The notes under the pieces were generated by a model. That model was not told where the DNA came from, made no database searches, and saw nothing but the letters and a program-made list of their open reading frames with translations. A stretch of DNA of 64,000 nucleotides, taken from positions 1-64,000 of IMG/VR virus record IMGVR_UViG_3300043788_000049; one strand, written 5' to 3'. The position numbers and the translations under genes were made by a program. Positions 1-31,120 of the stretch are shown in pieces. Positions within the stretch are counted from its first letter, which is position 1; the number at the start of each line of letters is the position of its first letter. Source of the DNA: a virus.

Positions 1-1212
1 AGCCTGACCGAGAAGGCGCCCAACTTCCGAGATGCCCTGCATGAACCCAGACGGGACCGCGCCGTAGAGTGCGGCCGTCCCCACATCGCGAAGCGCCGGC
101 ATGAGACCATTATCCTCGCCGGCCGCCGCGCGCTGGCGCTGGATCATCGGTTCTACAATGCCCTGCCCGGCGGCATTGAGCGCTGCGCCGCGCGCGGCGG
201 CTTCGGCAACGTTCAATCCGGCTCTTTTGAGGCCAGTCAGCCCCAGCGTCTCCGCCAGCTTCGCCTCGCCGGGGCCAGCGGCCAGAAGCGCGAAATTAAT
301 CGGCGAGCGCGCCCAGCCGAGGAAATGCCCGACCCCGCTCACAATGTCAGGGATGACCCCGCCGCCCGTCTTGGCGTAAGCGCGCGTGTCGGCCCCTTCG
401 ACACTTTTATATAGAGCCATCCCGTCATCGAGGACTGAACGGTTCGCGCCGATCGTGCCCAGGATGTCCCGCTCGCGGTCGGAATTGCCGCTGTATTTCT
501 CGGCTAGGTTCTGCAGGTCTTGCTGATAAAGATTGCGCTCGGCCTGCTGGACCTTGCTCATCCATTCTGGTGAGCCAAACATGATCGGGTTTTCGGGCGT
601 GCTCTGGGCCTGAACAATCTGCTTTGCTTGTTCGAGATAGTCCCCCATGAGGGGGTTCTTCATTTTGACGCCTGTCGCCTCATTGATGGCGTCGTTGCGG
701 CGCTGGACCGCTTCGCCGATCGCATTGCTCTGGGCGTCATAGACATCATGATAGCGAGAACTGTCCTGGGCGGTGTTGAGCAGATTGTTGAGAACGCCGC
801 CATGAGGCATCCACTCCGCTTCTGACCTGATGGCTGCTCCAAGCAAGGATTTAAAAGCGCTGGGTTGCGGTGGGGGCGTAGGCAGCCCCGCGGCGTCCGG
901 GGCCGATGCGCCAGGGACCGTCGCGGGCGAAACGAGGTCCTTGGCTTCCCTGATCGCCTCGCCGGCCAGCGTGTCGCTCAACGGCGGCGCGGGGCCGCTC
1001 TTGACATTGCCTGCCTGCAGATCGGTGGAGAGCGGCATCCCGGCGGCGAGCATCCCGGCGGAGACGCGGTGACGCTGATTGAGTTCGTCGTCCGCAGGAT
1101 CAAGTTCGCTATGGGCGTTCGGCAGGTGCGTGAGGTCGAACTGCCGCATCGGTGGCATGGCCGAGGGCGGCGTCGGTGAAACCATCGCCTGATCGGTCGC
1201 GGCGTCGGCCAT
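1..1212 (-). CDS. Large internal virion/ejection protein, N-terminal part (runs off the window start)
   Basis: ATG at 1212-1210 overlaps the TGA of the upstream gene (TGATG). Frame reads MADAATDQAMVSPTPP... and appears open towards position 1. Lies after tail and ejection genes. Confidence 0.7.
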   Translation of the reverse strand, partial: MADAATDQAMVSPTPPSAMPPMRQFDLTHLPNAHSELDPADDELNQRHRVSAGMLAAGMPLSTDLQAGNVKSGPAPPLSDTLAGEAIREAKDLVSPATVPGASAPDAAGLPTPPPQPSAFKSLLGAAIRSEAEWMPHGGVLNNLLNTAQDSSRYHDVYDAQSNAIGEAVQRRNDAINEATGVKMKNPLMGDYLEQAKQIVQAQSTPENPIMFGSPEWMSKVQQAERNLYQQDLQNLAEKYSGNSDRERDILGTIGANRSVLDDGMALYKSVEGADTRAYAKTGGGVIPDIVSGVGHFLGWARSPINFALLAAGPGEAKLAETLGLTGLKRAGLNVAEAAARGAALNAAGQGIVEPMIQRQRAAAGEDNGLMPALRDVGTAALYGAVPSGFMQGISEVGRLLGQA

Positions 1213-4200
1213 CACTCAGCCTCAGCCGTCTGGGGTGCCGGCTCGCCAGCCTCTAGCAGTTGCCCCGGCGTTGTGGCCGGGGTGCGCTGTGGCGACGCCT
1301 TCGGCTTGAGGAAGGCGTCACCCGCGCGATCGCCCATCATGCTCCGGACCTGATCGAACTGGAGTATCCATTGCTTGCCGTTCTGCCCGAAAACTGGCTT
1401 GGGATTTTCGCCGTTCGGGTCGTGGAGATAGACGGCATAATCGCCGTGGAATAGGCCGTCCTGCTGATCCGGAACCGCTCGAAGCCATGCCTCTTTAAGA
1501 TCGACCGCCTTGAAGTTGCCGCGGGGCGGATTGGGCAGTTGGGACAGATCGCGGTCGGTGATCTTGTTGATCACATCGTCGAATTTGTTGGCTCGAACGT
1601 CTGGCGGGACGAGCACCTTCTGCTGGTTCCCAGCCCAATAGCCGCCGCGATCGATGACGCCGCCATACCAGTTACCGTCCTTATCCTGGGTCGCGCCAAG
1701 CGCCTTCTGATAAGCGGTATCGATAAAAGTATTATCGACAAAGCTCTTGTCAGCCTTGGGATCGCGACCATCGCGATAAGCCTTCGCGCTCATCAGCAAA
1801 TTCGCCATTTCGCGCGTCTGGGAAGTGTAGATGTCGCCAAGCGCCTGACTGGCGTTGCCCAGCGGGTCCTGGCGGCCCTGGCCGAGAATGCTTTCATTGA
1901 ACCGAGGCACGTCGCTCTTGATGGATTTATCGTGGAGCGCCGCTGTGACCTGGGCGATGTCATCGATCGCCCCCGGATCGCCACCCTGGAGAGCGAGCCT
2001 TCCCATGCCCGCAAAGGCCGGCGCATCCGCGCCAATCTCCTTGAAGACGGAGCCAGCCTGCGAGCCCATGCCGGCGACGACGCTGCTCGCGAGATTGATC
2101 ATCGGCTGGCCGCCGTTGCGTGCGATCTGGCGAAACTGCGCCTTCTCCTGAGGCTGGAGATATTGCGGCTCGCCCAGCCCGTAGAAGTTTGCAACCTTTT
2201 CCGCGTCCGCCGCGCGCTGGCGCATATCGCCAACGATGGTTTGGCTGTTGGGATCGAGGGCTTTGACGCCAGGAAGCACGCCATCCTTGACCGCCCGCCC
2301 GAACGCATTCTTCGCAATTTCGCCCTGGTAGGACTTGAGCCACTTCTGGGAGGCGTCGAGCGCTGCGGCTTTGGCGTCGGTGTCTGAACTGTTCGGCTGG
2401 GTCTGGACCTGCTTGACGTATTCGGCCTCCATGTTGTCGACGTTGGCCTGGACTTGGGCCGGCGAGAGGCCGCGGAAGCTGTTGATGGCGTTGCGAGTGG
2501 CCGCGAACTCCGCATAGCGCTGTCGAACCTCTGGGTCTTGGTGGGCGGAATAGCGGTTCTTGTAGTCGTCCGCGGTGTCCTGGCCGACCGGCTGGCCCTT
2601 GATGAGATCAGACGTTGCTGACTTGAGCGCCGCCTTGGCGTCCGTCGATTCCTGCTTCTGACCTTCCGAATTGCGCCGCTCGATCGTCGCAACCGCGTTC
2701 TGGAGCTGCACGCCAAGTTCGGCCTTCTCATCCGGCTTTAGGGCATCGAGGATGGTGCCGGTCTTGCCCGGAGCGAACGCCCCTGGTGCGCCGGTTGCGC
2801 GCGAGCCGGGGACAGGCTGCGTCGAGCCATCCTTCATCACATAGACGAGCGACCCATCCCGAGCATTGGCGACATGGTCGACGCCGTCCGGGCGCTTCGG
2901 ATTGATGCTGTCCGCCTTAGCGCCAAGATCGATCGGCTGGCCGCCTAGAGGAATTAGATCGCGCCCTGGACCCGCCGCGCCGGTCTGGTCGATCGGCAAA
3001 GGCTTTTCTTGGCCTGGAGCCGGACGCGCACCCCTTCTTTTTTGAAATGCCTCCGTGTCCTGTTCCATGAACCGGTGCATTTCTTGGTAGCGGGATTCCG
3101 CCGTCGCTACGTCAGCATAAGCGGGAAATTTCTCGATACCCTCTGCCTTGGCGCGGGCGAGCGCATCTTTTGGCGGCAAAATCTTACCATCCCAGACGGT
3201 TGGAATGTTGTAGGTTTTTCCGCCTATGTCCACTGAGGTTTGGAAAAGCGATGATCGGCTTCCATCGGCATTGTCTACCCCGCCCGGACCATAAAGATTT
3301 GTCAAATGCCTCTGATAGAGCGCTTGTTCCTGCTGCGTCATCTTCAGTGTGCTATTCGCTACATTGAAATTCGTTTGATCCGGTGGACCGGCGCCTTGTG
3401 TTGTGACTGCCGCAGGCGGAGAAAGCCCAACAAAAGCTCCCGACCCTCCATTGGAATAAGCCTGGAACGCCGTCTGTGAGTAGTTTGCGCGCTTGGTGCT
3501 TTCGTCCGGCCCCTGGTCCTTGGGCTTCTCGAAATAGCGCATCCAGATGTCGCTGGCCTCTTTGACGCTCCCGGCGCGATTGACCGCATCCCAAACGGAC
3601 GTCCTGCCGTCCGGCATCATCATCTGCGAGGATTCAAACTTGGCGTAGGCGAGTTGGGTAGCCGGATCGTTGATGTCCTGGCCATTCGCCTTTGCCCAGG
3701 CTTGAGCCTGCGTCCAACGCTCGCCGTTCCATTGGAACTGACCATGCGAGTCTTCATTGTCCCAATTTCCGGCAGTCGTTCGAAGACTGCTTTCTCGGAT
3801 GCCATTGCCAGTGATCGCGGCCGCGCCGATCGGCGATGCGCCAAAGTGAGTAACGAGAGAGCCGGTGACAGCCGTGGCGCGCTGGCGCAATTCAGCCGCA
3901 GAAGCCGGCGGCGCGCTCCAGTCGGAAATGCCGCCGCCGCTTATACCCGGCTGCATCTGATAATAAGGAAGGAGCCGCTTTAATTCAGACGTGTCGCCGG
4001 TCTGGTCCGCGCGCGCGATGGCGATCCGAAGTTGCGCGTAGCTGTAGTTGTGAGCGAACTCCAGCGATCGTTGTTGCCGTTGTTCGGGCGTGATGTAGCC
4101 CTTAGCGACTGCCGCATCGAGCCGCGCGCCGTAGGAACTGATCAGGCTGTTTCGCTGGTTGTCGTCCTGCGTGGAGAGGGCGCCGTTGATCGTGTCGGTT

Positions 4201-13166: not shown

Positions 13167-14414
13167 TCAAAGGTCGGCGGTAGCCTGGATGAAGCCGGAG
13201 TTGGGCTGCCGGCTGACCAGAAGCGCGGCCTGACCCGAGGCGGCGGTCGTGGTGCTGACCACGTTGATGAAGTTGACCGTATGCGTCGACCCGGCGGCGA
13301 AGCCGGAGACGGCGGCCGTGGTGCCGATGACATAGAGGGCGAACGAGCCGGCGAGGACCGTGACGGTCGGCGGGGAGCGCATCTGAACCGGCAACGGGAT
13401 GAAGATCGTCTCGTTGTTGGTGGTGATGACTTCGCCGGAACCGACGATCGAACCCGAAGTGCCTTCGTTGATCTGGAAGAAATAACGCTGGCAGATTTCC
13501 AGTTCGACCTGGACGTCGCGGTGCTCGAAGGCGGTCGGCCCCGTGCCGGCCTCAAGCTGGACGCCCCACATATAGATATTGTCGCCCACCACCGCGTTGG
13601 AGTTCGTCGGTGAATAGGAGAACAGGGCGGCGAGCTGGGTCGCGCTGGTCGGAACCGTCCCATAGAAGGAATAGCGGGTCGGGGTCGAAGTCAGAGCCTG
13701 GGTCGCGCTGATGACGTTGTTATAGCCCGTCCAAGTGCCGGCGACGGCGGAGGTAGCCGACTGGTTGGTGCCGCTACCCATGGCCAGCGTGACGCCCATG
13801 TTGGCGCCTGAGAAGCCGGTATTGGCCGCAGCCCAGAAGGATAGCGTGACAGGCGATCCCTGCATGCGAATGCTGTCCAGGCTCTCCAGGACCTGCCCGA
13901 AGGTGATCGTAGAGACGGTGGTGCCGGACGTGCCACGGCCCCACTGGAAGGCTTGCGAGAAGGTCGGAACCGATGTGGTAGCGACGTTCGACACGGTGGC
14001 CGAGGTCGCTGCGGCGCCGGCAATGAGGAACCAGCGATCAGCCGTGTAGACGGCGGTCGTGCCGATGTTCGAGAAGAAGTTGCCGCGCTGCCACGGGTTG
14101 ATCGTCGCGTCGCCGCCGTCGAGGAGGTTGCGGAAGTTGGACGACAGATAGCCGGCTTGCGCGCCAAAGAAGGGCGCGACGGTGGCCGCGCGAGACGTCG
14201 AGGTCGGGCTATTGGTGACGTAAGCCTGATAGGTCACGCCGCCAGCGACAATATTGACGATGTCGCCCTGCTCCATGCCGCGCGCAGCGCCATCGGAGAA
14301 GTAGCCGGCGCTGAACACCGTCGCGATGCCGTCGGGCGAGACGTAGAAGAATTCGCCCTGATTGCCCTCGATCGTCTGGGCAATGCGGGACAGAAAGTTG
14401 CCGTTATAGGCCAT
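13167..14414 (-). CDS. Capsid decoration protein fused to a Ser/Thr-rich beta-sandwich, fibre-type domain
   Basis: Directly after the capsid gene. N-terminal AGYFSDG..RGM..GDIV; C-terminal NLLDGGD..PWQRG..YTADRW..GVQLEAG..PTAFEHR..ELEICQRYF. Confidence 0.65.
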   Translation of the reverse strand: MAYNGNFLSRIAQTIEGNQGEFFYVSPDGIATVFSAGYFSDGAARGMEQGDIVNIVAGGVTYQAYVTNSPTSTSRAATVAPFFGAQAGYLSSNFRNLLDGGDATINPWQRGNFFSNIGTTAVYTADRWFLIAGAAATSATVSNVATTSVPTFSQAFQWGRGTSGTTVSTITFGQVLESLDSIRMQGSPVTLSFWAAANTGFSGANMGVTLAMGSGTNQSATSAVAGTWTGYNNVISATQALTSTPTRYSFYGTVPTSATQLAALFSYSPTNSNAVVGDNIYMWGVQLEAGTGPTAFEHRDVQVELEICQRYFFQINEGTSGSIVGSGEVITTNNETIFIPLPVQMRSPPTVTVLAGSFALYVIGTTAAVSGFAAGSTHTVNFINVVSTTTAASGQAALLVSRQPNSGFIQATADL

Positions 14415-14438
14415 AGCGGTTTCCCTCTTCTCCCGGCC

Positions 14439-15302
14439 TTAGCTGATCGCCGAGGCGTCGTGGAACACTTGGACAACGCCCTTGGTCTGCAAGAGCTTGG
14501 AGCCCATGTAGACGGAAGTGCGCGCCCACGAATAATCCTGGCGGCGGTGGTAGTCGGCCATCGCCATGATCTCACCGGAATTGACCGCGTGGCCGATCGC
14601 ATTGCGGTGATAGGCGTAGCACTGCTCGGCATTGGTCCCGAGGCCGGTGAGCAAGGCGCTGGTGATCCAGTTGAAGCCCATCCAGCGCATCATCTTGCGC
14701 GGCACGCCGCCGCCGTTATTCGGCAGGGGCTGTTCAAGGACCTTCACATCGACGTAGAAAACGTTGGTGAATTCCTTGACCTGATAGAGGTAGCCGATGA
14801 AGCCGGGGCTAACGACGAAGAACATATTGTCGATTTCGTCGACTGCGACCGCGTTATTGCCCAGCTTGGTCATGGTGCGTGACACCATGGACTGGTTCGC
14901 CGTCGAGCCGGTCGGGCCGCCGATGACGTTGGTGGCCGCCGAGAGAGCCGAGAGAATGTCCAGGTCGATCGTGCGATTGATCACCTTCATGCTCGTCTCT
15001 TGCATGATGCGCTTGCCGTCGCCCTGGCTGGCGAAGAGGTTGAACCCGGTGCGCTGCACGAGATCGTGCTGTTCGATCAAGGTCGCCGTGAACTGATTGA
15101 GGTTGTCGACACGGGACGGGATCAGGCCGTTGACGCCGCGGGTTTGCGCGATCGCGCCGCCAGAATCCGCAACCAGGAAGATCGCTTGGTTGCCCTTGAT
15201 TACCGCCTCTGTAATCACAGTGGTGCGAAGCATAGACATGCCGACTTCGAAGCCAGCAATGAATTCTTGGCGGTATTGCACCTGAAAAGCTGTGTCGGAG
15301 AT
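14439..15302 (-). CDS. Major capsid protein (BPP-1 Bbp17-like); probable ATC start
   Basis: SDTAFQVQYRQEFIAGFE...TRGVNGLIP...WMGFNWI...YHRNAIGHA...MGSKLLQ..GVV. GGAGG SD is 5 nt before ATC; an in-frame TAG lies 4 codons upstream. Confidence 0.9.
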   Translation of the reverse strand: MSDTAFQVQYRQEFIAGFEVGMSMLRTTVITEAVIKGNQAIFLVADSGGAIAQTRGVNGLIPSRVDNLNQFTATLIEQHDLVQRTGFNLFASQGDGKRIMQETSMKVINRTIDLDILSALSAATNVIGGPTGSTANQSMVSRTMTKLGNNAVAVDEIDNMFFVVSPGFIGYLYQVKEFTNVFYVDVKVLEQPLPNNGGGVPRKMMRWMGFNWITSALLTGLGTNAEQCYAYHRNAIGHAVNSGEIMAMADYHRRQDYSWARTSVYMGSKLLQTKGVVQVFHDASAIS

Positions 15303-15520
15303 GGTAACCTCCTACCAAAAGAGCCAGGCAATAGCCTCGGTCTACTTTCGATAGGGTTTTCCGCAGTCGTGATTACCTCGGGTTGCCTCACATTCCTGTC
15401 AGGGCCGAAGTATATCTAGCGGGGCCTCTCTCCAGTTATTTCCTTTGGAAGCGGTCGGGCCGCAAAGGCGGGTTGCCAACAGCTACTATCAAAGGTGTGG
15501 GTTACCGCGCCCACACCCTT
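15303..15520 (-). ncRNA. Candidate structured 5' leader RNA of the capsid gene
   Basis: Intergenic between the HNH and capsid genes. Several hairpins, three GGYAACCC and three GGCCC motifs, and long-range CUUUGAUAG/CUAUCGAAAG pairing. Confidence 0.5.
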
Positions 15521-15549
15521 CTAATAGCCTTACCTGCGTCACTTGTAAA
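15521..15549 (-). promoter_or_regulatory. Sigma70-like promoter for the capsid leader
   Basis: TTTACA-17 nt-TATTAG. Confidence 0.5.
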
Positions 15550-15562
15550 TAGGGGTAGTGTT

Positions 15563-16087
15563 TTAGGCGGTCAGCCAATCGAATCTGGCGAACTCGCCCC
15601 ATATGGCTTCAGCCGCCGCGCGGTAGACTGCGCGGGCTTCTTCGAGGGTGTCATAGGTGCCAAAGAATTGGCCCCGCGCTCGCACCTGATATTTTCCAGT
15701 CGATTTAAGCTTGTGGACGCCTTTGGCCCCCGAAGTGTTGCGCGTGCTGTTTGCCATGTTGGCGAGGTTCTGTGAGCCGGTGGCTGGGCGCAGATTACTC
15801 CATCGATTATTGAGTTTATCTGCATCTTGGTGATCAAGGTCGAAACGGCACCACTCTCCCGTCATCAGAAGATATGCGATTCGATGTGCTAGAAAGGAAT
15901 CCTTAAATAGGCCGACAACGCGATAGCCATCTATGCTGATTTTGCCAGCGATCTTGCCGGGGGCTGATTTCCCGCTACGCGCGGGCTGTTTTATCCAAAT
16001 GAGGTCGCCGCTATCCGGATCGTATGCGAGAAATTCTGCGATTTGCTCGAATGTCGGGAGTTGTTCTATCGTTCGACGAGCCGTCAT
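15563..16087 (-). CDS. HNH homing endonuclease (HNH-AP2 type)
   Basis: YDPDSGDLIW...LAHRIAY...DHQDADKLNNRWSNLRPAT..QN...NTSGAKGV. Confidence 0.85.
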   Translation of the reverse strand: MTARRTIEQLPTFEQIAEFLAYDPDSGDLIWIKQPARSGKSAPGKIAGKISIDGYRVVGLFKDSFLAHRIAYLLMTGEWCRFDLDHQDADKLNNRWSNLRPATGSQNLANMANSTRNTSGAKGVHKLKSTGKYQVRARGQFFGTYDTLEEARAVYRAAAEAIWGEFARFDWLTA

Positions 16088-16164
16088 GATCCGCTCCACG
16101 GGTCTGATGGTTAGGAGCCGCAGGCCGTGCAACCGACCTTGCGGCTCTGTCTTTCTAGCACGAA

Positions 16165-17268
16165 TCACGCCGCCTTGCGCGGGTTCCCATTCTCGTCGAT
16201 CAAGCCCTGCTTCATGAGCGCATCGAGAATATCCCGATATTCCTGTTGCATGGGCTGGCTCTGCGGGCCGAAATAATAGGGATTGCTCCGGTCGGCCATG
16301 CCGCGGCGCATGTGACCCTCGATTTCGCCCTTGCGATCCATGGCGGATTTGACCGGATCGCCCTTGTCGCCCAGGACCAGAGCGCCGAATGGGTTGTTTT
16401 GCAGCATCGTCGCCGCGGCCCATTCCATGAAATCAGGCCGGTTGCCGATCAACTTCCCGTCCGGCCCGCGCGCGCCGATGATGTCCTGGAACAGCGTGTT
16501 GCCGTCGAAGAAGCTCAAGGCCGCGTTGTAGCGCTTGGTATATTCCGCGCCCCACTTCGCCCGAAGGCTCGTGTCGGCCTGGAGGGTGTCTTTATTGTCC
16601 TGTTGGGAGAGGCGATCGACCGATTGCTGCTGCTCGGAGGCATACCAAGCCAGCATGTCCCGGAAGGCCTCGGGCGCAAGATTGTGTTCGAGGGCGTGGG
16701 CCTTGAAGGAATCAAGCGCCGGCTTGTCGTATTCGCCCCAGACCCAGCCATTGCCGATGTCGGTCGAATAGCCTTCCGCCGAGTCCGGGATGCCGTGGCT
16801 CTTGCGATATTCAGCCAGTTCCTCCGGCGTGTAGTTGTTCGGGAGGGCCTTTTTCAGGTCCCCCGAGGACATGCGCTGCTCCATCGCCAGCCATGATTTG
16901 CCGATGGCTTCCGGCGACGTGAACCGCGCGAGACGGTCGATCAGGGATTTCGGCGGGTTGGGGCCGGCGATCTCCTTGGCGAATTTCTCGCGCCAGTCGG
17001 CGGGCCAGTCGGCAGGCGTGGCCGGCGGCGGCTGCGTGCCGTCAAGGGGTTTCTGGGCGAGGGTTGTGGGCTTGGCCGGCGCGGGCGGTGCAGGTGGAGC
17101 GGGTGGAGCGGGTGGAGGCGCATCGCCAGCCGGCGGGGCCGCGGGCGGCGTGGCAGGCGGAGTAGCCGGCGGCGCAGGAGGCGGGGCGGTCGGATCGCTG
17201 CCGGTGGGCGGCGGCGCGACAACGCCAGGACGGCCGCCATCGGGGTTCTGGGTGTCGCCGTCAGCCAT
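16165..17268 (-). CDS. Capsid scaffolding/assembly protein
   Basis: Pro/Ala-rich N-terminus, WPADWRE, GIPDSAEGY, LRAKWGAEY. Lies between portal and capsid genes. Confidence 0.8.
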   Translation of the reverse strand: MADGDTQNPDGGRPGVVAPPPTGSDPTAPPPAPPATPPATPPAAPPAGDAPPPAPPAPPAPPAPAKPTTLAQKPLDGTQPPPATPADWPADWREKFAKEIAGPNPPKSLIDRLARFTSPEAIGKSWLAMEQRMSSGDLKKALPNNYTPEELAEYRKSHGIPDSAEGYSTDIGNGWVWGEYDKPALDSFKAHALEHNLAPEAFRDMLAWYASEQQQSVDRLSQQDNKDTLQADTSLRAKWGAEYTKRYNAALSFFDGNTLFQDIIGARGPDGKLIGNRPDFMEWAAATMLQNNPFGALVLGDKGDPVKSAMDRKGEIEGHMRRGMADRSNPYYFGPQSQPMQQEYRDILDALMKQGLIDENGNPRKAA

Positions 17269-17278
17269 CGTCTATCTC

Positions 17279-17638
17279 CTATGTGTTCTTGATCTCGCCA
17301 TCGTTGTCGGCGTTTTCCGGCGCGGGCATCGGCGCTTTCGTGACCCCTATCATATCAATTTGTCCTGGGCTCATCCGCAGGATTTTCTCGATCTCGTTGC
17401 CCACGAACCTCTTGCCCTCGCTAAAGCTCGTGTCGCGGTCCCCGCCAAGGTGATCAGGACGGTAAGCCATATCGTAGGTCCGGCAGAGATCCACGATCAG
17501 CCACTTCATGAAAAGGGTCTGCTGACTCTCGTCTGCCGAACCGCCCCAGAGCGCCTTCGCCGCATAGACGACCTGCTTGGTGAGCCGGGGCGGAATATAG
17601 GGCGCCATAGCGTGGTGCTTGGTGCGGATCAGGCGCAT
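17279..17638 (-). CDS. Bbp19-like head protein
   Basis: DRDTSFSEGKRFVG motif; located after the portal gene. Confidence 0.7.
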   Translation of the reverse strand: MRLIRTKHHAMAPYIPPRLTKQVVYAAKALWGGSADESQQTLFMKWLIVDLCRTYDMAYRPDHLGGDRDTSFSEGKRFVGNEIEKILRMSPGQIDMIGVTKAPMPAPENADNDGEIKNT

Positions 17639-17642
17639 TCAA

Positions 17643-19370
17643 CTACATGGCCCCGCCCTGTTGCGGTAATTGAGCCGGGATGACGCCTCCTTGTTGAAGG
17701 AGGTTCGCCGCATTTCCGATCTTCGACGCCACGTCAGCCCCATGCCCGGCCGTGTTCATCGTGTCTTGGGTCTGCTGCTGGGCGGCCATCGCCGCGCGCG
17801 ACTGCGCCTTGAGCCGCGCAGCGACTTCCTTCGGGACCATCCAGGTCGCCGGGGCGCCGGTGCCTTCAACCGCATCGCGGAAGGCGGTATCGAGGTCGAC
17901 GTCATGGACGACCGTCGGATCGACCGCGGCCGCGGCCTGCGTCACCTGCATCAGGGTCGTGAAGGATTGCACATTCGCCCTCGTGGCGGCCATCGTTAGC
18001 GGCGTCTCGAAGATAAACCGGACGTCCATGCCACGGAGGATTTTCGGCATATAGCCGAGGTCCCCGAAGGCGTTCATCCGCAGCATCATCTCGAAAACGC
18101 GGTCGCAGACGGCGCCATTGTATTCGACCTGGAGGGGCTCGAACAACGGCGTGGTGTTGCGAATATATTCCTCCCAGAGTTTCTGGACCTCGAACGCCGT
18201 GCGGGCGTGGGTGGTGTCCGGGAGCTTGATCTGATTGAGGAAGTGGCCGGTGGCGATGATTTCGGCGATGCGCTTTTCACGATCGACGCCCCAGCCGAGA
18301 TTGGGGTTGGTGCCAAGCAGCGGTTCGAGGACGGGCCCGGTGCGCTCGTCGTAATCGGCGTCGACCCAGGTAATGCCGCCGGCATAAGTGTTCACGCCGC
18401 CCTGGATCGCCTCGAAGACGCCCTTGTAGGGTGGATCGACCGCTTTCTGGCCCGCTTCGAGCAGCGTCAGGGTGATCTGCTGGAGCATGCGCGCGTCGGC
18501 GATGTTGACGACAGCCGGGGGGGAGTAGCCGTAGCCAAAGCCCGGCACCGTCTCCCAGCGCGGGCAGACGTAGCCCAACTGATACTGGCCCATTTCCTCC
18601 AGGATCGTCTCGTTATCGACATCGATCCAGATCGAGACGAAGGGCAGCTTGCGCCCGCTCATCCGGATGATCTGGCCGCCCTTAGCCTGCTCATCGATCG
18701 TCCCGGTGCCCTCATAATCGCTGCTCGGCATGACGATGTGCCGGCATTGGACATCGGTGTGCGGGTCTTTCTCGGCCAGGGTCTTGACCTTTGCGTCGAC
18801 CTTATCCGGGAACAGCTTGATGAGGTTCGCGCGGGTGATCTTGCGCTTGACGTGGATCGTGTCGACTTGCCCGCTCGGGTCCTCGGCCCACGCCACGTCC
18901 CGCATGTGGATCGTGCGGAAGAGAAGCCCGTTCCAGTTCGAGTTCGGGCGCAGCATGATGCAGGCGTTGCCGATCGTGACGAAATCGCGGTCCCCCTCCT
19001 TCGCCGCGCGCGACCAGCCGGACAGATTGTCATACATGGCCTGCCGCATTTGCTCGGTGGCGAAATCCAGCCACTTGCGGGCCATCGTGTCCTTGTTGAT
19101 TCGCTCGGATTGCGTGCGGGCATGGAACCACGTTTGACCCGGAGGTCGAAGCATGGCAGAAATGGCGTTCGCCAAGTCCCGCGAGGCCATTGCAGGCACG
19201 CCCGTCATCAAGTGACTAGCGAATTCCATGCCTATGCTACGGACGTAGCTGTAATCCGCCCGTTCTGGATATAGCTGTTCAGTTATTGCTTGCCAAAGAC
19301 TAATGATAGCTCGTCGGCGGTTGAACAAATCGTCGCCAATGCTTATTAACTCGGCAATTCTACTTTTCAT
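17643..19370 (-). CDS. Portal (head-tail connector) protein
   Basis: WQAITEQLYPERAD...LRPPGQTWF...PRWETVPG..YGYSP...KAVDPP...TAFEV. ATG at 19370 overlaps the HEG stop (ATGA). Confidence 0.9.
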   Translation of the reverse strand: MKSRIAELISIGDDLFNRRRAIISLWQAITEQLYPERADYSYVRSIGMEFASHLMTGVPAMASRDLANAISAMLRPPGQTWFHARTQSERINKDTMARKWLDFATEQMRQAMYDNLSGWSRAAKEGDRDFVTIGNACIMLRPNSNWNGLLFRTIHMRDVAWAEDPSGQVDTIHVKRKITRANLIKLFPDKVDAKVKTLAEKDPHTDVQCRHIVMPSSDYEGTGTIDEQAKGGQIIRMSGRKLPFVSIWIDVDNETILEEMGQYQLGYVCPRWETVPGFGYGYSPPAVVNIADARMLQQITLTLLEAGQKAVDPPYKGVFEAIQGGVNTYAGGITWVDADYDERTGPVLEPLLGTNPNLGWGVDREKRIAEIIATGHFLNQIKLPDTTHARTAFEVQKLWEEYIRNTTPLFEPLQVEYNGAVCDRVFEMMLRMNAFGDLGYMPKILRGMDVRFIFETPLTMAATRANVQSFTTLMQVTQAAAAVDPTVVHDVDLDTAFRDAVEGTGAPATWMVPKEVAARLKAQSRAAMAAQQQTQDTMNTAGHGADVASKIGNAANLLQQGGVIPAQLPQQGGAM

Positions 19371-30274: not shown

Positions 30275-30777
30275 CATGCCACGTCCCTCATAATCCGCCG
30301 CGCCGTGATTTCGACATCCCGGTTCACAAGCCCAGGCCAAATCGCGATTAGCTTTTCCTCCATCGCCCGCGCCTGCTCGCGCGTCGCATAAGTCGCCATC
30401 TTGATCATCTTCGGCCTCACTCCGTGCTCCTGCATCCAGCAATAGACCGCGCTCTCGCGGCTGTGCATGTGCGAAAGCCTGCGGGAGGCCATATCCATCG
30501 TGATCCCCACATAAATCGGGCGGCGGTCACGAGGATCAATCCAATAATAAACGTGGTGGTAAACCGGCCAAATTACGGGGTCCGCTTCTTCCCTCGCCGG
30601 TAGTCCTTCATGTAATCCCGCATATATTCCTTGTGATAACGCTGCCTGTCGAAGGGCTGCTTCGTCGCGGGCTCCGCAGGTTTCGCACTCGGAGGCTCCG
30701 GGGGAGGCACTGGAGCCACATTCGGCACAGACAATTTTTCCTCTTTCGGAGAGATGCTGCTTTTCGAAGGGCGACAT
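30274..30777 (-). CDS. GIY-YIG nuclease-family protein (start uncertain: 30777 or 30573)
   Basis: VYYWIDPRD..IYVGIT...R..SH...AMEEKLI. Confidence 0.7.
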   Translation of the reverse strand: MSPFEKQHLSERGKIVCAECGSSASPGASECETCGARDEAALRQAALSQGIYAGLHEGLPAREEADPVIWPVYHHVYYWIDPRDRRPIYVGITMDMASRRLSHMHSRESAVYCWMQEHGVRPKMIKMATYATREQARAMEEKLIAIWPGLVNRDVEITARRIMRDVA

Positions 30778-30863
30778 GCCGGCTCATCCCAAATGTGGAC
30801 CTGATACGCGAAATGCCGGTGTTCGCAGATCGAGCACATCGGAGGCTCGGAGGCTTTAGCCAT
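30573..30863 (-). CDS. Small protein with C2H2-like N-terminus and basic C-terminus
   Basis: CSICEHRH....H and FDRQRYHKEYMRDYM..YRR. Confidence 0.55.
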   Translation of the reverse strand: MAKASEPPMCSICEHRHFAYQVHIWDEPACRPSKSSISPKEEKLSVPNVAPVPPPEPPSAKPAEPATKQPFDRQRYHKEYMRDYMKDYRRGKKRTP

Positions 30864-30899
30864 CGTGTTAGACCTAACGGCTGGGTTTAACGGCGTCAA

Positions 30900-31120
30900 G
30901 TTAGTTCTAACGCCAGGAGCAAAATATCGCAACTTGCCCGGAAATTTCTGGCCAGATACCGATCCGAAAATTTGGCGAAATCGTCGGTCAGTAGCTGGCG
31001 GCGGATCGAGGCTTCTCTTTCCACAGGCCCCCGGGGTCGCGATTTGACCCCCTCCGGCTTTGAGGGGTGGGGGGCCGCGATCGTTCGAGGTCGCGCGGGA
31101 TGGTCGCTATGCGGTAGCTA
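30900..31120. other. Candidate packaging-initiation/terminus region
   Basis: Non-coding, downstream of terS. G/C runs with inverted repeats (ACCCCCTC...GAGGGGT), AAATTT tracts and a local G/C strand-skew switch. Confidence 0.4.

Follow-up and report, generated by a model that had tools for sequence, protein, structure and literature searches.

Results

Genomic context of the capsid gene

We analysed a window of 64,000 nucleotides, which corresponds to positions 1 to 64,000 of the IMG/VR virus record IMGVR_UViG_3300043788_000049. The source genome is a single 87,271-bp record of an uncultured phage with a GC content of 60.4%; the first 127 nt of the record recur at its end, and its completeness is rated at 100%, with direct terminal repeats. 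Terminase, portal-like, scaffold-like, HNH, capsid, fibre-like and tail protein genes follow each other in this order and form a podovirus-like head module, in which the succession of scaffold and capsid genes is syntenic in about 80 loci. The other genes of the phage look intact and have canonical starts. The whole genome contains no tRNA genes, and an IF3-like domain (PF00707) is likewise absent from it. The features of the capsid locus lie on the minus strand as follows:

14439..15302, minus strand: gene for the major capsid protein (PF19821, phrog_3437), which comprises 287 codons and a stop if ATC is taken as the start
15279..15281, minus strand: GTG at codon 8, the rival start chosen by ORF callers, without a Shine-Dalgarno (SD) sequence
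15297..15312, minus strand: predicted hairpin GGAGGU/AUCUCC with loop UACC, in which the start codon and codon 2 pair with the SD
15300..15302, minus strand: ATC, a near-cognate codon at which the major capsid gene is proposed to start, from sequence and homology to the starts of relatives
15303..15562, minus strand: capsid leader with motifs conserved across the family, among them GGCAACCCG at 15387-15379, and with hairpins that covary in relatives
15307..15313, minus strand: SD AGGAGGU, with its GGAGG core 5 nt before ATC
15312..15314, minus strand: in-frame TAG, four codons upstream of ATC and overlapping the SD, which excludes any start further upstream
15563..16087, minus strand: free-standing HNH homing endonuclease gene (PF13392, phrog_99) between the scaffold-like and capsid genes
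16165..17268, minus strand: scaffold-like gene (phrog_3742), upstream of the capsid gene and syntenic in relatives

The capsid gene matches the Pfam family PF19821 (Phage_capsid_2) with 72 bits at a cut-off of 25, covering profile positions 3-290 of 293, and the major head protein family phrog_3437 with an E value of 4e-42 (4.3e-42), covering profile positions 7-292 of 294. Both profiles align to capsid residues upstream of the GTG at codon 8. A sequence search of the PDB with the capsid protein gave 0 matches. In the deposited phage collection, blastn found 0 matches to the window, and tblastn found matches of only 22-28% identity and no close relative.

The start region of the capsid gene

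On the minus strand, the start region reads TAG (15314-15312), GAG GTT ACC, ATC (15302-15300), TCC GAC ACA GCT TTT CAG, GTG, CAA TAC, with AGGAGG at 15313-15308, and there is no canonical start codon between the in-frame TAG and the ATC. ORF callers place the start at the GTG and thus predict a product of 280 amino acids (P0001, a database entry), while reading from the ATC yields the N-terminus (ATC)-S-D-T-A-F-Q-V-Q-Y-R. The preliminary description of this locus had proposed initiation at ATC on the basis of these letters, of the GGAGG located 5 nt before the ATC and of the blocking in-frame TAG, all of which are borne out by the sequence. Its statement that the GTG has no SD also holds, since no SD-like motif occurs in the 20 nt before this codon. 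We also considered translational coupling to an upstream ORF and rejected it; the in-frame stretch before the TAG comprises 9 codons and contains no start codon.

The codon at the initiator position in homologs

We compared the capsid protein with the best 120 of approximately 4,000 database homologs. About 105 of these 120 begin with M-[S/A]-D-[T/S]-A-F-Q-x-Q-Y-R, or more fully M[S/A]D[T/S]AFQ[I/V]QYRQEF, and the N-terminus that the preliminary description had expected for this capsid family proved to be correct. As the homologs share this N-terminus in register with the window, the ATC occupies the initiator position. To avoid reliance on gene calls, we read the initiator codon from the DNA of the fetched homologous loci. 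It is ATG in 52 and GTG in 5 of 57 IMG/VR loci; 42 metagenome and genome loci comprise 38 with ATG, 1 with ATC and 3 with interrupted genes. Taken over 123 distinct full-length capsid sequences, the DNA reads ATG (105), GTG (8), TTG (2), ATC (4), ATT (3) or AAC (1) at this position. The codon homologous to the ATC of the window is therefore ATG, GTG or TTG in 115 of 123 distinct relatives, with an alignment that is in register from residue 2 onwards, and an ATC at the exact homologous start position of some 115 distinct relatives is not explained by chance. In nearly all homologous loci, an SD-like GGAG precedes the start by 5-9 nt.

The number of ATC and ATT (AUY) cases depends on how they were collected: 4 of the 7 distinct AUY sequences were initially picked up by a directed search for the pattern ATH plus conserved codons. 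AUY was seen in 0 of 57 and 1 of 38 sequences in undirected scans and in 5 of 72 in a scan that was seeded with an ATT member, so that a fair estimate of its frequency in the capsid family is about 3-6% of sequences. Some truncated protein calls (P0044, P0047, P0049, P0053, P0104, P0107 and P0110) may mask further non-canonical or intron-split starts. The single AAC, in L166 (approximately 1495-1503), stands at the initiator position (NADTAFQ...) directly after a CTG and has no visible SD; it may be that translation begins at this CTG, one codon upstream, or that a further insertion boundary lies here.

Other lineages with AUC or AUU at the capsid start

Alignment of homologous capsid 5' ends, the check proposed in the preliminary description, places ATC or ATT at the same site in at least three other lineages. 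Counted by TIR type and with the window included, the AUY cases represent at least four lineages. In L087 (47% identity with the window), an ATC follows AAGGAG, a TAA lies eight codons upstream, and the first canonical codon is codon 24. L158 and L160 also carry ATC, in a TIR that resembles that of L087, and the ATC of L104/L108 is present in two assemblies with a single difference over 900 nt. ATT occupies the initiator position in L105, L106 and L107. The frame is closed upstream, without a canonical start, in L087, L158, L104 and L107. The first canonical codon downstream lies at codon 16-41 in the AUY loci other than the window, and a start there would cost the protein its conserved N-arm. 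Placing the AUY states on the capsid tree takes 7 changes, of which at least three for ATC and two for ATT are imposed by well-supported branches.

The capsid proteins of the three loci with ATT are 83-90% identical and the coding sequence of the lineage has diverged by 10-17%, and they share an identical 14-nt TIR, GTGAGGCACCCAAA-ATT, between diverged flanks. Synonymous and nonsynonymous changes in codons 2-23 number 9:2, 12:2 and 5:0. These codons are thus under purifying selection, which means that they are translated and that initiation must be at ATT. Judged from this pattern of substitutions, near-cognate initiation works in this capsid family.

Two further observations concern the TIRs of these lineages. 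The TIR of the ATT loci is more conserved than the gene itself, and its SD is weak (about -6 kcal/mol). In L087 (approximately 120-136) and L158/L160 (approximately 1485-1503), the TIR AAGGAGATGA(T/C)CAAA-ATC resembles an extended complement of the anti-SD (AAGGAGGUGAUC, one mismatch). We considered whether L087 and L158 could start at an out-of-frame ATG inside the SD, and rejected this possibility; the ATG lies immediately next to the GGAG core, and its frame is not that of the capsid gene.

The ATC allele of the window

In its own clade, the ATC of the window is a singleton: relatives with at least 70% identity all start with M, except for one with L, and the sister locus L001 (88% identical, SH-aLRT 100) has ATG. 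The persistence of AUY starts is therefore shown for other lineages and not for the allele of the window. Compared to L001, codons 2-7 carry 4 synonymous and 0 nonsynonymous changes, a pattern that does not date the G-to-C change. When the exact TIR pattern was searched in viral_contigs with N at the variable base, no second copy was found. Public runs each contained at most 12% of the sampled words, with no RNA run among them, and the four that were tried yielded no near-identical contig across 15204-15337.

The window also differs from its sister in the strength of the SD. When paired to a generic 16S 3' end, the SD of the window has a predicted duplex energy of -11.4 kcal/mol, which ranks 4 of 121 family TIRs, compared to -5.1 kcal/mol in L001. 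The median over ATC lineages is -10.9 kcal/mol versus -7.4 kcal/mol for canonical starts (MWU p = 0.006, with n = 4 lineages that are not phylogenetically independent), and 3 of 4 ATC lineages are in the top 5% for SD strength. These predicted duplex energies, of the window and of the ATC lineages, speak for an allele that is established rather than newly damaged or erroneous. Compensation of a weak codon by a strong SD is not general, however, as the SDs of the ATT lineage are weak.

Predicted RNA structure at the start

The predicted local fold is less favourable for initiation. In the hairpin GGAGGU/AUCUCC, a G of the SD is the pairing partner of the C of the AUC, and the predicted stability is -5.2 kcal/mol with AUC versus -2.3 kcal/mol with AUG; the predicted probability that the SD is unpaired is 0.02 with AUC and 0.40 with AUG. 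The C of the AUC would thus stabilise a hairpin that buries the SD, which counts against efficient initiation. The preliminary description had placed the SD in the loop of a UGGUA/UACCA stem. Such a stem can be drawn (-3.5 kcal/mol), but it is beaten by the -5.2 kcal/mol hairpin, which represents the MFE/ensemble fold and in which the SD is paired. The fold at the capsid start is not significantly more stable than that of shuffled sequence (z = -1.0), and in a wider sequence context, the TIR of the window is moderately buried (rank 20 of 121).

The capsid leader, the HNH gene and interrupted relatives

Approximately 200 nt of the leader form a conserved, covarying structured RNA across the capsid family. 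One leader hairpin has the form CNGG-CCCC-(GNRA-like loop)-GG-ACACC-CCNG; its outer stem covaries, as 8-9 of 38 sequences have changes on both sides. A second motif, GGACA(C/A)CCCGAGCGACGG, lies about 45 nt before the start. No Rfam family was recognised in positions 14000-18000 of the window, and no sigma-70-like consensus promoter was found on the minus strand of the leader. This structured leader is common to relatives that carry ATG. It is therefore not an adaptation to AUC and does not explain the ATC.

The HNH gene upstream of the leader has homologs (37-44% identity, some of them tandem partial duplicates) at the same spot in L001/L031, L004/L062 and L023. A link between the HNH endonuclease and the ATC, in the sense of a self-immunity mutation, is not supported: these same loci carry the HNH gene, yet their capsid genes start with ATG.

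In four relatives, the 5' end of the capsid gene is interrupted:

L083 1509-2500; L103 approximately 338-1314; L098 approximately 57-1020; L126 approximately 1500: interrupted capsid 5' ends

The interruption follows codon 16 in L083 and L103 and codon 9 in L098 and L126, and exon 1 of the interrupted relatives (MADSAFQVQYRQEFIA or MADTAFQIQ) lies about 1 kb upstream. In L083, an ORF for a double-motif LAGLIDADG endonuclease (1649-2488) ends just before exon 2. Rfam recognised no family in the interrupted relatives. The interruptions are probably mobile group I-like introns, which suggests that the conserved 5' end of the capsid gene is a hotspot for mobile introns.

Discussion

Probable initiation of the capsid gene at AUC

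Our analysis suggests that the major capsid gene of this phage probably initiates at the AUC at 15302-15300. This reading, which was that of the preliminary description, is the best supported one with respect to the position of the codon, the SD, the conserved residues downstream and the presence of AUY in other lineages; the weak part is the allele of the window itself, which is a singleton. In the P site of bacterial ribosomes, the initiator tRNA can read AUU, AUC and AUA, codons against which IF3 discriminates. It is also known that methionine aminopeptidase removes Met before Ser. Initiation at this locus could thus proceed in three steps: the strong AGGAGGU SD located 5 nt upstream would position the 30S subunit on the AUC, initiator fMet-tRNA would decode the AUC with a mismatch at the third position, and methionine aminopeptidase would remove the Met. 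As residue 2 is Ser, the mature protein SDTAFQVQYR... would be identical to the product of an ATG allele. A phage-encoded initiator tRNA with an altered anticodon was also considered, and rejected in view of the absence of tRNA genes from the genome. We infer that this phage is viable in spite of the AUC, that its SD, being unusually strong, makes up in part for the weak codon, and that the output is lower than from AUG. In E. coli, the yield from AUC relative to AUG is about 1-2% (GFP) or 0.1-3% (NanoLuc), and mass spectrometry has confirmed that the product of AUC initiation carries an N-terminal Met (10.1101/063800). An output of about 0.1-3% is hard to reconcile with several hundred capsid copies per virion.

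Alternative explanations

An alternative reading is that base 15300 represents an error of the assembly or consensus, or a minority or defective variant, and that the functional phage has ATG. We regard this as unlikely, yet as an explanation to be taken seriously: the window alone in its clade has ATC, a single G-to-C change away from the family norm; initiation is predicted to suffer from this change on two counts, the codon itself and the hairpin at the SD; and no independent copy of the allele occurs in the collections that were scanned. On the other hand, the contig closes with an overlap of 127 nt, is rated 100% complete and carries other genes that look intact, substitution errors in short-read consensus sequences are rare, and the prior chance of one at exactly this base is low. 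Changes of this kind are, moreover, real in other lineages of the family, where they are inherited, and an SD of rank 4 among 121 would be an unexplained coincidence if the ATC were an artefact. Even if the ATC is genuine, it could be a dead former start, with translation now beginning at the GTG at 15281-15279 and a capsid that lacks SDTAFQ. The GTG is the first canonical start in frame and the choice of the gene callers (P0001); GTG at codon 8 is also uncommon in the family (3 of 120), and the sister has ATC there. However, no SD-like sequence precedes the GTG, and the strong SD is spaced for the ATC and lies 26 nt away from the GTG. A start at this codon would also delete residues 2-7, including A5, F6 and Q7, which are conserved to 100%, 94% and 99%, from a stretch that ranks 19 of 281 six-residue windows for conservation. 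Such a route would be closed to the other AUY lineages, in which the first canonical codon is found at codon 16-41. We therefore consider an exclusive start at the GTG quite improbable, while this codon, rare as it is in the family, could serve as a minor back-up start.

The HNH endonuclease gene just upstream, together with the interrupted capsid 5' ends of some relatives, could also point to a split gene, whose first exon with an ATG would lie upstream of the HNH gene and be joined to the remainder by group I intron splicing. This is barely credible for the window: the genome contains a single coding copy of SDTAFQVQYR, which is contiguous with the rest of the gene, the SD and the ATC align with the TIR of the family, and there is no match to an Rfam group I intron. 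Furthermore, relatives with the same HNH arrangement have an ordinary ATG after the same kind of spacer.

Comparison with known near-cognate starts

Near-cognate starts themselves are already known from infC and pcnB. As in infC (AUU/AUC) and E. coli pcnB (AUU), a near-cognate AUY occupies the initiator position of the capsid gene behind a functional SD and would be decoded by initiator tRNA. The weak codon of infC is phylogenetically conserved and acts as the sensor of an IF3 autoregulatory loop, and this gene, in spite of its AUU, still gives about 5,500 IF3 molecules per cell, as stated in PMC5499595. The capsid differs from infC in that it is a structural product with no known role in initiation and no evident feedback, and in that AUY is sporadic (about 3-6%) and not universal in its family. 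Mutants and constructs of phage genes offer a second comparison. The examples given in PMC5499595 comprise T4 rIIB (AUG to AUA), T7 0.3 (AUG to ACG) and the HB-3 murein hydrolase (AUA/AUU/AUC), in which initiation with Met persists at lower yields of 5-7.5% for HB-3 and about 15% for rIIB, and all 64 codons have been measured as starts in E. coli (10.1101/063800). Like these phage mutants, the capsid genes carry a single-base change of AUG behind a normal SD. In contrast to the mutants, which are products of the laboratory, the capsid AUY starts are found in nature, on the gene that encodes the most abundant protein of the virion, and sister lineages have kept them through 10-30% protein divergence. 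In a limited literature search, we found no paper that describes AUY starts on phage major capsid genes.

Near-cognate starts are usually tied to proteins that are of low abundance or autoregulated, and they reach about 1% of AUG in E. coli reporters, which makes their repeated, and in one lineage stable, occurrence on a capsid gene unexpected. Reporters may overstate how much the identity of the codon counts in the strong native TIRs of phages, or capsid translation may be deliberately limited. The further suggestion of the preliminary description, that initiation is regulated (for example IF3-sensitive or leader-assisted), is so far a conjecture: ATG-bearing relatives have the structured leader too, and the genome encodes no IF3-like protein. 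That AUY capsid starts represent a selected throttle, and not tolerated drift, seems doubtful to us. Under such a scenario, the conserved structured leader would act as a strong ribosome-recruiting platform before a weak start, and lineages would have arrived at this arrangement independently, some of them adding an extra-strong SD. A start that is sensitive to IF3 or (p)ppGpp could couple capsid synthesis to the translational state of the host, or could set the ratio of capsid to scaffold.

Our results also bear on the annotation of phage genomes. Standard gene callers allow only ATG, GTG and TTG as starts, and they thus cut off the conserved N-terminus of capsid proteins such as the one described here. 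The natural allelic series of ATG, GTG, TTG, ATC and ATT behind homologous leaders would be well suited for comparative reporter work on start codons.

Two minor observations were made elsewhere in this genome. Near position 31043 (minus strand), within the ORF 30573-31106, the pattern GGAGG-N7-ATC occurs in an open frame whose first canonical start is codon 58; as a candidate for a second ATC start it was set aside, with no family support and no PHROG match, and it probably arose by chance. An ORF of approximately 3,365 amino acids wraps the contig junction (C1 78265-87144 into window positions 1-1215, minus strand); at C1 84424-84678 it has a domain of the RelA/SpoT type (PF04607), with a score of 33.6 bits that exceeds the cut-off. 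(p)ppGpp has been reported to preferentially inhibit mRNAs with non-AUG starts in vitro, as stated in PMC5499595, but it would be pure speculation to link this ORF to the AUC capsid start.
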